A stretch of 64,000 bases of DNA from the NCBI GenBank assembly GCA_963771175.1, contig CAVYSY010000057.1, forward strand, positions 150,790-214,789, written 5' to 3'. Both the position numbers and the translations under genes were made by a program. How positions within the stretch are numbered: position 1 is the first letter of the stretch; the number at the start of each line of letters is the position of its first letter. This stretch comes from an uncultured delta proteobacterium. Lineage in GTDB: Bacteria; Myxococcota; Myxococcia; Myxococcales; Myxococcaceae. Under the pieces are notes generated by a model, which saw nothing but the letters and a program-made list of their open reading frames with translations, did not search any database and had not been told where the DNA came from. Below are positions 53,135 to 57,600 of the stretch, one piece after another.

Positions 53135-56100
53135 ATGAAGCCCCTGGTGGCGATGCGCAGTGAACCGGGTTCCACCCTGATGGACCTCCTGCGGAAGAGG
53201 GCTCACGAGCAGCCCTCGCGCCGCGTCTTCACCCTGCTCGAGGACGGCGAGACGGAGACGCTGCACCTGGACTTCGCCGGGCTGGACCGACGGGCCCGGG
53301 CCATCGCCGCCACCCTCCAGCGTCATGCCGCGGTTGGGGAGCGCGCCCTGCTCCTCTACCCCCACGGGCTGGACTACGTCGCCGCCTTCTTCGGAGCGCT
53401 GTACGCGGGAGTCGTGGCGGTGCCGGTATACCCGCCGGACCCGACCCGACTGAACCGGACGCTGCCGCGGCTGCGGGCCATCGCCCGGGACGCCCAAGCC
53501 ACCCTGGTGCTCACCACGAGCGCCATTCGCGAGCTGATGGACGGGCTCGCCCGCCATGCGCCGGAGCTCGCCGCGCCGCGGTGGGTGGCCACCGACGAGC
53601 TCGTCCCCGAGGTGGAGCAGGAGTGGCGGCCTCCGGAGGTGACACCGGACTCGCTCGCCTTCATCCAGTACACCTCGGGCTCCACCTCCGAGCCCAAGGG
53701 CGTGCTGCTCACCCACGCCAACCTGCTCCACAACGAGTCCCTCATCCAGCGGATCATCGGCAGCACCGAGGACTCCGTGGGCGTGAGCTGGCTGCCGCTG
53801 TACCACGACATGGGGCTCATCGGCTGCGTGCTGCAGCCGGTGTACGTCGGCTTCCCCATCGTCCTCATGCCGCCCGAGGCCTTCCTGCAGAAGCCGCTGC
53901 GCTGGCTGCGGGCCATCTCGCGCTACGGCGGCACCCACAGCGGCGGGCCCGACTTCGCCTTCGACCTGTGCGTGCGCAGGGTGTCCGCCGAGCAGCGTGA
54001 CGCGCTCGACCTGAGCACCTGGCGCTGCGCCTTCAACGCCGCCGAGCCCGTGCGCGCCGACACCCTGGAGCGCTTCACCCGGCACTTCGCCCCCAGCGGC
54101 CTCCGCTCGGACGCGCTGCGCCCGCTGTACGGGATGGCCGAGGCCACGCTGATGGTGACGGGCAGCACCCAGGGCTCGCGCGGGACGGTGCGCACGGTGG
54201 ACGGCGCGGCGCTGGAGTCCTGGTGGGTCGTCGAGCTGCCCGAGGGGACTCCGGGCTCGAGGCGCCTGGTGGGCCTGGGCCGCCCCTGGCTGGAGCAGCA
54301 GGTCGTCATCATGGACCCCGTCACGCGCACCCGCTGCGCCCCGGACCGGGTGGGCGAAATCTGGCTCGCGGGCCCCAGCGTGGCCCAGGGCTACTGGAAC
54401 CGCCCCGAGGAGACCGAGCACACCTTCCGCGCCCTGCGCGCCGACACCGGGGAGGGCCCGTACCTGCGCACGGGAGACCTCGGCTTCCTCCAGGAGGGCG
54501 AGCTCTTCTTCGCCGGCCGCCTCAAGGACCTCGTCATCATCCGCGGCCGCAACCACTACCCCCAGGACCTCGAGCGCACCGTCGAGGAGAGCCACCCCGC
54601 GCTGCGCCCCGGCTGCGGCGCCGCCTTCTCCGTCGACTCCGGGCAGGAGGAGCGTCTCGTCATCGTCCAGGAGGTCCACCAGCGGCACGAGGACGCCAGC
54701 TTCGAGGAGCTCGCCCACGCCGCCCGGCAGGCCGTGGCCGCCCTCCATGGCATCCAACTCGACACGCTGGTGCTCATCCGCCAGGGCACCATCCCCAAGA
54801 CATCCAGCGGGAAGATTCAGCGCCACGCCTGCCGGCAGGACTTCCTCGCGGGCACGCTGGAGCTCCTCCACACGGCCCGGCCCGTGCTCCCTCGCGCCGA
54901 GCCCACCGACGCGAGCCCCTCCGCCTTCCTGCGCGAGCAGCTCGCCCGGCTCATCGGCATCGTGCCCGAGGCCCTGGACCCCACCCGCACCCTCGCCGAG
55001 CTGGGGCTGGACTCGATGCGCCAGCTCGAGTTGCAACAACTCCTGGAGAGCCGGTACGGGCTCGGGCCAGGCCATGAGGAGCTGCTGCGCCACCCGCTCG
55101 GACAGCTCCTGGAGCAGCTGGGCACGCGCAAGCCGCGCGCCGAGGAGGGACCCTTCTCCATCGCCTGGGACGTGGCGCGTGATGCCCCCGCGCTCTGGCG
55201 CCACCTGCGCGAGACCGAGCCCTGGGTAGCCGACGCGCTGGAGGGGATGCGGCGGAGTCTCCCCGTGCCGCCCACCAACGGCGTCTTCGAGTCCGAGCGC
55301 TTCTTCCGCCCACAGGGACACTTCCGCTCCTTCTACCGGCGCGGGCCCGGAGAGAGCGTGCTGGCCATCAAGGGCGCGGAGGTACGGTGCGAGGACCAGG
55401 TCGGCTTCCTCCAACTGATGCAGCAGCGGCTCTTCGAGCGCTTCGCGAAGCACTCGGTGACGAACACGCTGGAGTACTTCCTCATCCAGGAGCGCAAGGT
55501 GCCGGGAGCGCTCACGCTGCCCGAGGCGCTCACCGAGGCGCGACGCGCGGCCGAGCTGCAGGGCCGCTTCCTGGAGGAGTACGGCGAGCCCGGGGGCGTC
55601 CCCGTCCCGCTGCTGGTGGTGCGCTGGTCCGAGGAGGTGGTGGCGCGCTTCCGGGCCCGGCTCCTGCCGCTGCTGTCCGGCCACTCGCTGAGCATCGCCG
55701 AGGGCGAGCTGGGTGACGGGCTCGCCTGCTACGTGTACTGGTTCCCCAAGGCGCCCTTCCCGCGCGTGAGCCACTTCGCCGGCTCCCTGGCCCAGGAGAG
55801 CCAGCGCACCGGCTCGGGTGGCTTCACCAACACGCGCCTCATCTACGCCACCCTCAAGCACAACCTGGACCCCGAGGCCGTCGTCGACTCGTGGGTGCGG
55901 CTCGTCGCGCGGATGCTGCTGCTCGGCTACTTCCCCAGCGACATCCAGCACTTCAAGAACGGGCAGTGTATCGAGCCGCAGAACGTGCTCCTCAACGGCA
56001 CCTTCGCGGACATCGACTCCGTCATCCCCATGCGCCAGCTCGGGAGCGACCGGCGAGTTCTACGCCAGCTTCCTCGCCATGCTGAACCTGCTGGCGAACA

Positions 56101-57600
56101 CCGTCCGCGTCTTCCTCACCGCCGAGAGCAACGGCACCACCACCCTCCCCAGCCCCTTCCCCCACCAGTTCCAGCGCCCCGACTTCCTGGAGATGCTCTC
56201 CGTCCTCCACGTCTGGGAGCGCCTGAAGGTGCACCTGCGCGAGCAGCGCCCGGGCCTGCGCGGCACCCTGGACCCGAGGCTCGAGGAGCTCGTCTCCTCG
56301 CGGCTCTCCTTCCCCGTCCTCTTCGAGAAGGTGCTGTTCTCGCTCTACTACGCCGGGCCCACCCTGCCCGAGAGCGCCCTGCACCTGCTCAGCATCGCCG
56401 ATGTCTACAGCGACGTGGGCTCGGAGGAGCGCCGGCCCTCGCGCAAGGTGGAGTACAGCCCCAGGCTCTCCGTGGACGCGGCGGCGCTCGCCACCCTGCC
56501 CCGCTCCTTCCTCGAGCAGTTGCGGCTCTCGCCCCGCGAGTTCATCCAGGATTGCCTCCGGGGAGAGGCATCACTCGTCACCGTGTACGAGACGTTCCTC
56601 GGCCGCATCGGGCTCATCGTGCTCCCGCTGGAGGACGCGACGCTCTACGTGGACCCGCGACGCACGGTGGAGGCCGTCGTCCGGGGGCTCGAGGAGGCCG
56701 CGCGACTGGGCGCCGATACCGTGTCCCTCACCGGCCTCATTCCCTCGGCCACGGACTACGGGCACGCGGTGAGGGCGGCCACCGCCGAGCGCTCCGGACT
56801 GCCGAGGCTCACCACCGGCCATGCCACCACCGTCGCCTCCTTCGTGATGATGGTGGAGCAGGTGCTGAAGGTCTCCGGGCGCGGGCTGGAGGACGAGCAC
56901 CTGGCGCTTCTCGGCGTGGGCTCCATCGGCACCTCCATCCTGCGGCTGCTGCTCCGGACGCTGCCCCACCCGCGTGGGCTCCAGTTGTGCGACGTGCCCG
57001 CCAAGCGCGAGCACCTGCTGCGGCTGAAGGAGGAGCTGCGCACGGAGTACGGCTTCCGGGGAGAGGTGAGCGTGGTGGCCATTCCCGGGGCCGAGGCTCC
57101 CGCCGAGGTGTACGAAGCCTCCGTCCTCCTCAGCGCCACCAGCGCCGCCAACCTGCTGGACGTGGAGCGGCTCCGGCCGGGGACGCTCGTAGTGGATGAC
57201 TCGGCGCCGCACTGCTTCGACCCGCGCCGCGCCATCCGCCGCTTCCAGGAGCGGCGGGACGTCCTCTTCACCGAGGCGGGCGCCATCCGCAGCCACCGAC
57301 CCATCCAGGAGATTCGGGAACTCTCCTTCGCCACCGGCTGGGACCACAAGGTGCGCGCGGCCCTCAAGCTGCTGCACCCCGCCGAGGACACCGTCATGGG
57401 GTGCGTCTTCTCCAGCATCCTGAGCTCACGCTTCGAGGACGCGCCATGCCTCGTGGGCACGCCCACGCCGAGGGACCTCGACCTGCACTACCGCAAGCTG
57501 CGCGAGTCTGCGCTTCGAGGCCGCGAGGCTCTACCTGGAGGACCACGTCCTCGATGAGGATTTGGTGGGCATGTTCCGCGCGCGGTTCGGCACGAAGTAG
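53135..57600 (+). CDS. Multidomain FAAL - ACP - unknown (SelO/kinase-like) - acyl-ACP-reductase-like protein, about 1487 aa after removing two +1 indels
   Basis: FAAL: QYTSGST, WLPLYHDMGLIG, YGMAEATL, RTGDLG, PKTSSGK; ACP: LGLDS; C-terminal SLTGLIPSATDYG, TTGHATT, GVGSIG, DDSAPHCF; indels near 56052 and 57507. Confidence 0.85.

Follow-up and report, generated by a model that had tools for sequence, protein, structure and literature searches.

The question raised by this locus was whether three fragments of open reading frame (ORF) encode a single multidomain lipid enzyme and, if so, how that enzyme might release its acyl chain. The locus is part of a 64,000-nucleotide stretch of contig CAVYSY010000057.1 from an uncultured delta proteobacterium; this whole stretch is called the window, and all coordinates refer to it. 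An initial annotation had read the locus as one gene for an FAAL, an ACP, a SelO/kinase-like domain and an acyl-ACP-reductase-like domain. The features are collected in Table 1.

Table 1. Positions of the gene, its domains and motifs, and the two extra bases in the window
Feature	Position	Strand	Remarks
Whole gene	53135..57600	+	About 1,487 codons after discounting two extra bases; ATG 53135 (MKPLVAM), stop TAG 57598-57600
FAAL domain	53192..54868	+	AMP-binding plus DIP2-like C-terminal subdomain; YTSGSTSEPKG core motif 53669-53701
ACP domain	54926..55096	+	PP-binding E 1e-7 (window), 2e-10 (P0005); LGLDS 55001-55015, phosphopantetheine Ser codon 55013-55015
Protein-kinase-fold domain, about 421 aa	55154..56417	+	Contains extra base 1; AF2 model, Foldseek
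Conserved residues of kinase-fold domain	Lys (AIKGAEV) 55370-55372; Asn 55982-55984; Asp 56009-56011 (QNVLLNGTFADIDS)	+	
Extra base 1, G within GACCGGCGAG	56052 (about)	+	Shifts frame phase 2 to phase 0
TAD-type domain	56472..57597	+	AAR superfamily, NAD-binding, predicted catalytic Cys; homology to 9e4x, 9e4s
TAD motifs	TTG 56811-56819; GVGSIG 56913-56930; LCDV Asp 56991-56993	+	
TAD motifs	DDSAP 57195-57209; Cys of MGCVFSS 57402-57404	+	
Extra base 2, T in GAGTCTGCGC	57507	+	Shifts frame phase 0 to phase 1, 30 codons ahead of the stop

The gene and its two extra bases

Frame analysis gave three ORF pieces, one at 53123..57199, one at 55818..57557, and one in the third frame running to FRARFGTK* at 57597. 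The initial annotation had proposed that removal of two single bases joins them into one ORF of about 1487 aa ending in FRARFGTK*, and this was confirmed by agreement among the ORF pieces, the GC3 phases and an intact homologue (P0005, 1,487 aa). In the interval 56010-56100, GC3 switched from phase 2 of the codon to phase 0 while the coding signal stayed unbroken (0.98 before, 0.92-1.00 after), and the final ~90 nt of the gene were in phase 1. P0005 was 95% identical to the window protein in the middle region and at the two repair sites read ...QLGSDREFYASF... and ...YRKLRELRFEAARLY...FRARFGRD, which is the join originally proposed. In alignments with related loci the repairs were right to the base: around 56052 all 10 of 10 related Archangiaceae loci read GACC-GCGAG where the window has GACCGGCGAG, and around 57507 the relatives read GAG-CTGCGC, without the T, in 8 of the 8 related loci covering that site. 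These related loci (n = 10, all Archangiaceae) came from narrow search patterns, which missed Melittangium. The homologue was one open frame of 1,517-1,573 codons, stop to stop, in each of four of them (L003, L005, L007 and L010). Judged by these sequence comparisons, 53135..57600 is one gene interrupted by two single extra bases. An ORF on the opposite strand (51800..55951, 1,383 aa) was rejected as a gene, being a shadow frame of a high-GC gene, and a promoter and terminator scan of 52800-58000 gave no signal above chance.

Because similar breaks occur in other genes of the window, including the housekeeping gene zwf, which is in at least four pieces with an in-frame stop, both indels are most likely technical, that is, assembly errors. 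A Ser/Thr kinase gene at ~28 kb was also split, and the next downstream gene had a 1-nt insertion at ~60731 relative to three of three loci; all four indels that were mapped against relatives were 1-nt insertions on the window side. We consider it quite unlikely that the gene is truly a pseudogene in the source strain, with genuine mutations as the two extra bases. Neither insertion lies within a long homopolymer, and the second is an isolated T, as that explanation would have it; however, the coding signal was undiminished past each shift (GC3 0.9-1.0), the 4.4 kb carried no further lesions, protein identity to P0005 was 95%, and comparable 1-nt insertions hit zwf and two kinase genes of the same window. 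The comparisons indicate that the gene is most likely intact in the source organism, as it is in relatives.

The database homologues placed the FAAL, the ACP, the ~400-aa domain and the Rossmann/Cys domain on one polypeptide, as first annotated: 14 of 18 were single proteins with lengths of 1,456-1,541 aa, and the remaining four were shorter, three of these being named partial. Two absences noted at the outset also held. When the intact homologues were searched with Pfam at a threshold as loose as E<=10, KS, C and TE domains were all missing, and no biosynthetic neighbor gene was conserved across the related loci. The prn cluster 9 kb upstream was rejected as a partner; the intervening genes are unrelated and the synteny alignments stop at ~48.8 kb.

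Four domains of the predicted protein

Pfam matched the window protein to AMP-binding (E 7e-65), AMP-dom_DIP2-like (4e-12) and PP-binding (1e-7), with no match beyond residue 660. An NRPS/PKS model aside, the best NCBIfam models were FAAL models, all scoring under their curated cut-offs, and the top 11 PDB chains were FAAL or FAAL-like (7r7e-g, E 1.6e-168; 3kxw; FadD32; FadD23). Compared with FadK of E. coli and with the acyl-CoA-synthetase-type enzyme encoded in the window, P0005 and P0018 had an insertion of ~26 residues, shorter in P0021, at what we take to be the site of the FAAL-specific insertion of the N-terminal subdomain. Although their deposited name is 'Polyketide synthase', the 7r7e-g chains are presumably the olefin synthase FAAL. 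Assignment of the N-terminal domain as an FAAL is well supported by these similarities, and acyl transfer to a carrier rather than to CoA is predicted. The second domain is, by similarity and conservation, a well-supported ACP: the annotated LGLDS serine at 55013 was found, and G624, L625 and S627 did not vary among the 14 full-length homologues.

Neither Pfam nor NCBIfam had a match for the third domain. Its AF2 model (pLDDT 91.4, pTM 0.91) was matched by Foldseek to SidJ, YdiU, SelO, AcsD, PknG, PRPK and Rio1; the SidJ, YdiU and SelO matches had E-values of 1.6e-4 to 1.5e-3 and low TM-scores (0.31-0.37). At E<=1e-3 there were 11 matches, all to SidJ or YdiU, with probabilities of 0.95-1.00 but TM-scores of 0.26-0.36. 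One of the 11, 6iii, is deposited merely as an uncharacterized protein. Protein-language-model features placed the domain with MchC/SelO clusters at 0.94, and 18 of the 30 named Atlas matches carried the MchC/SelO set. SelO/YdiU, SidJ and MchC are the domain's best structural and language-model matches, and a Lys...Glu...Asn...Asp pattern is conserved in its family. It is unlike SelO in sequence: Pfam SelO (PF02696) gave no match at E<=10, none of 19 family members matched any Pfam model, and membership in SelO was rejected when an hhalign comparison of the family alignment with E. coli SelO gave a probability of 0.4%. The label 'SelO/kinase-like' therefore holds for the fold and fails as a statement about SelO sequence. 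Judged by the model and its matches, the middle domain is probably a new, unnamed atypical protein-kinase-fold domain. MchC and MceJ are counted among the atypical kinase-fold enzymes.

Conservation within this family was examined in 128 sequences with 23-45% identity. K73, E113, N277 and D286 were each at least 90% conserved, and Lys, Glu, Asn, Asp and three Arg were near-invariant. The canonical kinase catalytic Asp was replaced by Cys (Ser in P0019). This replacement, together with the slight similarity to active kinases, would fit a pseudokinase serving as a non-catalytic spacer or docking module, but the near-invariance of those seven residues is typical of enzymes and makes such a role very unlikely.

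A profile built from the middle-domain-only alignment found relatives in 323 representative clusters, and 147 of the best 150 were 152-470 aa long. A homologue search with P0024 returned 13 proteins, seven named only 'hypothetical protein' and six with no name. A stand-alone homologue in Burkholderia stagnalis has an AsnB-type glutamine amidotransferase on one side and a FAAL-ACP-KS-AT-DH-KR-ACP-TE synthase on the other. This locus, a single case, is the sole outside link of the kinase-fold domain to FAAL-ACP chemistry; tblastn of plasmids gave no other record beyond the single Burkholderia one.

The C-terminal domain matched the CarI TAD structures 9e4x and 9e4s with E 5e-74 over 341 aligned residues (profile E 4e-96) and was 44% identical to a Moorena producens JHB TAD. 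All five TAD motifs, whose roles we took from a preprint (10.1101/2024.10.28.620694), aligned with CarI, with a Gly to Ala change in the loop DDSAP, and were invariant in 14 of 14 homologues. The PigE N-terminal domain was related at E 9e-9, and AAR chains were absent at E<=1 both from the complete list of five PDB matches to the window piece and from the best 60 of 201 to P0005. The assignment to the TAD branch of the acyl-ACP-reductase superfamily is thus well supported by homology; 'acyl-ACP-reductase-like' was right about the superfamily but not about the branch. The Asp matching CarI D2102, which excludes NADP, and the DDS-loop Asp were both present, and NAD use is predicted. The other TAD proteins found covered ~50-77% of the query, which fits a match to just the TAD part, and a PP-binding domain was present in many of them; the sole exceptions, P0177, P0178 and P0180, were short family fragments. 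Judged by these proteins, a kinase-fold domain is unusual beside a TAD. A predicted complex of the kinase-fold and TAD domains scored 0.10 (mark 0.32), which is evidence neither for nor against binding.

Proposed release of the acyl chain

The TAD preprint (10.1101/2024.10.28.620694) describes TADs as having an AAR-like fold and a link to amide-ended products. In the CarI TAD, NAD adjoins the invariant Cys, a residue that the PCP arm also reaches; AAR has Gly in place of the DDSGP-loop Asp. According to the same text, TAD activity, that of CarI included, has never been reconstituted. NADH gave no release in vitro, which the authors attribute to authentic substrates being unavailable or to a component being absent.

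Our tentative reading, which we hold to be possible though somewhat short of probable, is that the protein is a stand-alone four-domain lipid enzyme in which the acyl chain is released in an NAD-dependent reaction, the product probably being an amide, and the kinase-fold domain contributes an ATP-using step. The FAAL would adenylate a free fatty acid and load the acyl group onto the phosphopantetheine arm of the ACP, and the ACP would hand the chain to the invariant Cys of the TAD, by analogy with AAR and with the CarI cross-links. The chain would then leave the Cys thioester in an NAD(H)-dependent reaction. Release to nitrogen is favored because the C-terminal domain resembles TADs much more closely than it does true reductases; the expected product would be of the fatty amide type, possibly formed via a transient aldehyde. 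The initial annotation had the chain released reductively and modified with ATP. Reductive release is one of two live options, since TADs are tied to amide-ended products, and the modification with ATP is a prediction.

The kept Lys, Asn and Asp of the kinase-fold domain would hold nucleotide and metal, the catalytic Asp is changed to Cys or Ser, and the domain resembles SelO and SidJ, which transfer AMP or adenylate. SidJ chemistry consists of adenylation followed by glutamylation. Because the nucleotide and metal residues are kept and the likeness is to SelO and SidJ, an ATP-dependent step coupled to release is expected rather than simple phosphorylation of a lipid; it might supply or activate the nitrogen, or restore the cofactor. 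A bolder version, which we consider unlikely, is that the kinase-fold domain is the missing ATP-dependent component of TAD chemistry and that the protein makes a nitrogen-containing lipid, a primary amide or a derivative, from a plain fatty acid.

Several observations stand against the amide proposal. Amidation by TADs has been linked to three pathways but not demonstrated as a reaction, and the closest relatives whose chemistry has been shown (the PigE N-terminal domain, TamH and AAR) are reductases. The kinase-fold domain is absent from CarI, VatR and HcaD and so is not generally needed by TADs. In addition, the kinase-fold similarity is weak, with low TM-scores, and the SelO sequence tests fail.

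Plain reductive release is the main rival to the amide proposal. The C-terminal domain, like AAR, PigE and TamH, would reduce the acyl-ACP with NADH to a fatty aldehyde or further, and the kinase-fold domain, which could be a fused partner, would then phosphorylate or AMPylate the product or a derivative. The AAR-like fold, the catalytic Cys and the relationship to the PigE reductase domain (E 9e-9) are consistent with this chemistry. PigE reduces thioesters, as stated in PMC8341465, and TamH carries out an NADH-dependent thioester reduction (10.1101/2025.08.11.669332); the TAD preprint gives the CarI TAD a slightly better Kd for NADH than for NAD+ (3.5 vs 11.6 uM; 10.1101/2024.10.28.620694). 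Against it, the domain is nearer TAD than PigE by ~65 orders of magnitude in E-value and AAR was not retrieved, the TAD-specific Asp by the nicotinamide is present where AAR has Gly, and TADs given NADH showed no release in vitro. An ATP-dependent reaction on an aldehyde is also, in our judgment, without obvious precedent. We regard the reductive scheme as somewhat unlikely.

A further alternative is that the kinase-fold domain modifies the ACP-bound chain before release, for example by phosphorylating or AMPylating a hydroxyl to bring about elimination, and that the TAD only offloads. In olefin synthase a sulfotransferase activates a hydroxyl to drive elimination, and the 7r7e-g chains nearest to our FAAL are those we take to be the olefin synthase FAAL. 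The kinase-fold domain is immediately C-terminal of the ACP, and the sole stand-alone homologue with known context adjoins the FAAL-ACP-KS-AT-DH-KR-ACP-TE synthase. That context is single, however; a hydroxylase or KR is absent from the protein and its conserved neighbors, and a preference of the FAAL for hydroxy acids is without support. Modification before release therefore appears highly doubtful.

Comparison with known systems and significance

The literature searched, with survey tables and the TAD preprint supplements outside its scope, held no instance of the four-domain combination and no report of a SelO-like domain within assembly lines; the accessible part of a FAAL survey (PMC12820801) makes no mention of the architecture. 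The initial annotation recognized the architecture in no characterized system; this holds for the combination but not for the C-terminal domain, which has crystal structures (9e4s, 9e4x and related entries).

CarI, VatR and HcaD are TAD-terminated NRPS modules for carmabin, vatiamide and hectoramide (Rankin et al., 10.1101/2024.10.28.620694), with PDB entries 9e4s, 9e4u, 9e4x, 9e50 and 9e56. As in these proteins, the TAD here comes last and has a carrier protein upstream of it. However, the carrier here is loaded by an FAAL, whereas theirs is loaded by a C-A NRPS module; the ACP and TAD are ~450 residues apart, with a whole kinase-fold domain between them, in place of the 26-residue CarI linker; and the gene is stand-alone, whereas CarI, VatR and HcaD terminate multi-module clusters. 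The overall route is shared with TamA plus TamH (tambjamine) and PigE (prodigiosin), in which a fatty acid likewise passes through an adenylate and a carrier thioester to a Cys domain of the AAR superfamily that is fused to a partner enzyme. TamH and PigE are only distantly related to the present protein, their partner is a PLP transaminase rather than a kinase-fold domain, and here, unlike in those systems, all steps are in one polypeptide.

Carboxylic acid reductases are A-PCP-R single proteins with an SDR-type R domain. They too activate a carboxylic acid on an internal carrier, but their R domain is unrelated to the domains here. Myxococcus xanthus ElbD, of ether-lipid synthesis, is similarly one multidomain protein that activates an acid on its internal carrier and processes it, like the carboxylic acid reductases, with no KS, C or TE domain; its processing domains are FAR1-like and AGPAT-like (PMC9131029) and are unrelated to those here. 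Cyanobacterial AAR shares the two-lobed fold and the position of the catalytic Cys (10.1101/2024.10.28.620694). AAR uses NADPH and has Gly beside the nicotinamide, where the window's domain has Asp, and it is a stand-alone enzyme; the oxidase to which it binds acts on the aldehyde that AAR makes.

The mode of TAD release and the origin of the nitrogen in the amide are an unsolved problem that this protein could address. Because its substrate would be a fatty acid alone, and because it has its own loader and carrier and an additional conserved enzyme-like domain, the protein is about the simplest natural test system for TAD chemistry. The protein also offers a first way into the function of the widespread ~400-aa kinase-fold family. 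If the kinase-fold domain were indeed the missing component, the 300-odd stand-alone clusters would be a new class of nucleotide-using enzymes working with carrier-protein thioesters. A lipid product of this pathway may have been kept across Archangium, Vitiosangium, Cystobacter and Melittangium.

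Reading frame of the target gene

The target gene lies on three overlapping ORFs in a window with a G+C content of ~70%, and the initial annotation had proposed that removal of two single bases joins them into one. Both frame-shift sites were aligned with related DNA from public genomes. The first extra base was absent in 10 of 10 related loci, all reading GACC-G(C/T/G)GAG, and the second, a T, was absent in all eight loci covering the site, which read GAG-CTG. The same join was found in an intact homologue of 1,487 aa (P0005), which reads ...QLGSDREFYASF... and ...YRKLRELRFEAARLY... 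across the two sites. The proposed ATG (53135), stop codon (57598-57600), and ACP Ser codon (55013-55015) all matched, and the observation made on this gene was confirmed. In a third-position GC plot the coding signal of the gene was unbroken and undiminished past each shift; the codon phase changed from 2 to 0 between 56010 and 56100, and the last ~90 nt were in phase 1.

Coordinates of features in the window and in the Burkholderia locus
Feature	Position	Strand	Detail
Target gene	53135-57600	+	~1,487 codons after two extra bases are discounted
First ORF piece	53123-57199	+	
Second ORF piece	55818-57557	+	
Third ORF piece	to 57597	+	short; ends FRARFGTK*
Extra base 1	56052	+	
Extra base 2	57507	+	T
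Middle domain	55154-56417	+	~421 aa
C-terminal TAD-type domain	~56472-57597	+	
Match to PigE N-terminal domain	56622-57287		residues 190-411 of the 56055-57500 piece
zwf	9834-11854	+	glucose-6-phosphate dehydrogenase
Ser/Thr protein kinase gene	27729-29300	+	
prnABCD	38554-44489	+	pyrrolnitrin-type; four consecutive genes
Site of missing esterase gene	51790-51871		~80 bp
Low-G+C stretch	57600-59400		1.8 kb
Kinase-AAA_16-TPR regulator gene	59436-63537	+	insertions at ~60731 and, possibly, 63276
Unannotated cluster, Burkholderia stagnalis NZ_CP156686.1	4099-18730		

Of the homologues, 14 of the 18 with the middle region were single proteins of 1,456-1,541 aa, three of the four shorter ones were labeled 'partial' by the source, and the homologue formed a single open frame in all four genome loci examined for ORFs. 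The housekeeping gene zwf is also interrupted, being in at least four pieces in three frames, which suggests that the assembly is error-prone. After its first piece (G6PD_N 1-155) comes an in-frame stop (10905-10907); a piece with G6PD_N 165-183 and G6PD_C 1-69 shares that frame, and G6PD_C 64-132 and 132-296 are in two other frames. A 6-phosphogluconolactonase gene follows zwf. A Ser/Thr protein kinase gene is split over two frames (Pkinase positions 56-135 in one and 139-259 in the other). The regulator gene just downstream of the target has a 1-nt insertion relative to three of three loci and a possible second one relative to the sole locus reaching that site; in Archangium gephyra it is one frame of 1,346 codons. 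All four of the indels mapped against relatives were single-base insertions in the window. We conclude that the indels in the target gene are very probably technical errors.

Domains of the encoded protein

The FAAL domain matched Pfam AMP-binding (E 7e-65) and has a DIP2-like C-terminal subdomain. Its best NCBIfam models were FAAL models save one NRPS/PKS model, all under their curated cut-offs, and its best solved structures were FAALs (7r7e-g, E 1.6e-168, then 3kxw, FadD32, and FadD23). It carries an insertion of ~26 residues that is absent from E. coli FadK and from a CoA-ligase-type enzyme encoded in the window. The ACP matched PP-binding, and the Ser of its LGLDS motif was invariant in 14 of 14 homologues.

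A PDB sequence search with the C-terminal domain found 9e4x and 9e4s (also 9e4u, 9e50, and 9e56) with E 5e-74 over 341 residues. We take this group to be the putative terminal amidation domain (TAD) of CarI (bioRxiv 10.1101/2024.10.28.620694), with which the residue motifs and molecule name agree; a literature search by PDB code returned no confirmation of that assignment. The TTG and GxGxxG motifs, the NADP-excluding Asp, the DDS(G/A)P loop, and an invariant Cys were aligned and conserved, and identity to a Moorena producens JHB TAD was 44%. According to the available text of that preprint, the CarI TAD has an AAR-like fold and binds NAD beside the Cys, which the carrier's arm can reach; the second Asp of the DDS(G/A)P loop stacks on the nicotinamide, and in acyl-ACP reductase (AAR) this residue is Gly. 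The same text reports that product release in vitro was brought about neither by NAD(H) or metals nor by ammonia or any amino acid; the authors also found no conserved nitrogen-supplying neighbor.

In the main rival reading, the acyl chain would simply be released by reduction, giving an aldehyde as in PigE, TamH, and AAR, and the fused domain would then process that aldehyde further. In PigE, the N-terminal domain is described as an AAR-like thioester reductase (PMC8341465, in part), and its sequence shows a detectable kinship with the TAD-type domain of the target, far weaker than that of the CarI entries (4ppm, E 9e-9). From the portion available, the reductase domain of TamH offloads the acyl chain from TamA using NADH (preprint 10.1101/2025.08.11.669332). 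The available main text of the CarI preprint mentions no FAALs, kinases, PigE, or TamH, and so makes no TAD-PigE link. AAR chains were absent from the matches of the C-terminal domain at E<=1 (for P0005, from the best 60 of 201 matches). We regard release as an aldehyde as rather unlikely. A nitrogen-containing, amide-type product is the reading that we tentatively favor, because all sequence criteria class the C-terminal domain as a TAD, and it has the Asp that separates TADs from AAR.

The middle domain matched no Pfam or NCBIfam family, even at permissive thresholds, and none of 19 members of its family matched any Pfam family. When its profile was used in an exhaustive HMMER search, 323 representative clusters had E<=1e-3; of these, 256 were at <=1e-10 and 136 at <=1e-30. 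Among the best 150 of the 323, 147 were 152-470 aa, the fused arrangement was found only in P0018 (1,480 aa) and P0020 (1,150 aa), and one relative (P0123, 669 aa) had an N-terminal extension without explanation. Around a stand-alone relative (P0024; 13 proteins, query included), seven proteins were named 'hypothetical protein' and six had no name.

In an alignment of 128 members, which are 23-45% identical to the fused form (its close relatives excepted), R58, G74, and R204 were invariant, and R52, K73, E76, E113, N277, D286, and S289, with others, were kept at >=90%. An AlphaFold2 model made with this alignment had a pLDDT of 91.4 and a pTM of 0.91. The 11 Foldseek matches in the PDB at E<=1e-3 were all Legionella SidJ or E. 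coli YdiU entries, including 6iii, deposited only as an uncharacterized protein; Pseudomonas SelO (1.5e-3), AcsD, PknG, PRPK, Rio1, and ordinary kinases came next. TM-scores were low (0.23-0.37). In language-model features, the MchC/SelO set made up 18 of 30 named matches (best 0.94, 189 features in common). Profile comparison of the family with E. coli SelO was negative (probability 0.4%). The initial label 'SelO/kinase-like' is therefore appropriate to the fold but not to family membership. Our conclusion is that the middle domain forms a family of its own, so far undescribed, with a predicted atypical protein-kinase fold. The alignment leads us to conclude that the putative ligands of nucleotide and metal, namely Lys (in AIKG), Asn, and Asp (in ADIDS), are kept, and a Cys (Ser in P0019) stands five residues before the conserved Asn, at the place of the catalytic Asp of kinases.

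Distribution and gene neighborhood

The target gene family is narrow, being found in Archangium, Vitiosangium, Cystobacter, and Melittangium and in four more distant sequences (55-66% identity). In 65 TAD-containing proteins (265-844 aa), ~50-77% of the query was typically matched (weakest 20%), which fits a match to the TAD part only. Precomputed Pfam annotations for these proteins included A-domain C-terminus plus PP-binding, KR plus PP-binding, docking domain, thioesterase, and monooxygenase; the only exceptions were P0177, P0178, and P0180, short fragments of the target gene's own family. Having a kinase-fold domain placed between the carrier and the TAD thus appears to be a peculiarity of this family. 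FAAL-ACP loaders were already known, as was the TAD as of 2024; the four-domain combination and the embedded kinase-fold family were undescribed in the literature searched, and the supplements of the TAD preprint may hold the architecture.

Upstream of the target gene are a Zn-dependent alcohol dehydrogenase and a polysaccharide lyase. In relatives, an esterase gene of ~0.9 kb (Pfam Esterase, E 4e-57 in one locus) lies between these two; it is missing from the window. The downstream genes vary among genomes (kinase-AAA-TPR regulator, P-type ATPase, and others). The stretch after the target gene has a G+C content of 62-66% (vs ~70%) and is not shared with related loci; it contains ORFs on the opposite strand, of which one weakly matches Arm-DNA-binding (integrase-type, E 5e-4), and may be a mobile-element remnant. 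No flanking gene is an obvious pathway partner, as initially noted, which supports the description of the gene as stand-alone. The prnABCD cluster, 9 kb upstream (tryptophan halogenase, E 2e-167; PrnB, E 4e-89; a second flavin halogenase; and a Rieske oxygenase), was rejected as a partner because unrelated genes lie in between.

The only stand-alone middle-domain homologue seen with its context (27% identity) is on a Burkholderia stagnalis replicon, in a cluster without annotation that comprises an amidohydrolase, an HMGL-like synthase, an AsnB-type glutamine amidotransferase, the homologue, and a synthase. The homologue lies between the amidotransferase and the synthase, a 2,824-aa FAAL-ACP-KS-AT-DH-KR-ACP-TE protein. 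This one case is suggestive of the middle domain working with FAAL-loaded carriers, perhaps in nitrogen transfer.

Proposed route to the product

The domain identities and conserved catalytic residues, together with the NAD binding and arm access of the CarI TAD in the cited work, are well founded. In the proposed route, the FAAL would load the ACP with a fatty acid, the acyl chain would pass to the Cys of the TAD-type domain, and an NAD(H)-dependent step would release it. SidJ and SelO carry out AMP transfer or adenylation chemistry. Because these are the closest structural relatives and the catalytic Asp is missing, the kinase-fold domain would use ATP in a coupled step by AMP transfer or adenylation more probably than by simple phosphorylation. 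The TAD authors' hypothesis, in the available text, has the amide of NAD supplying the nitrogen, and NAD synthetase genes adjoin a few TAD clusters (bioRxiv 10.1101/2024.10.28.620694). Following that hypothesis, one speculative option is that the spent cofactor would be re-amidated by the ATP-dependent kinase-fold domain. The target protein offers a system of one protein and one simple substrate in which to study a release chemistry so far resistant to reconstitution, and a way in to the unnamed enzyme family of its kinase-fold middle domain.
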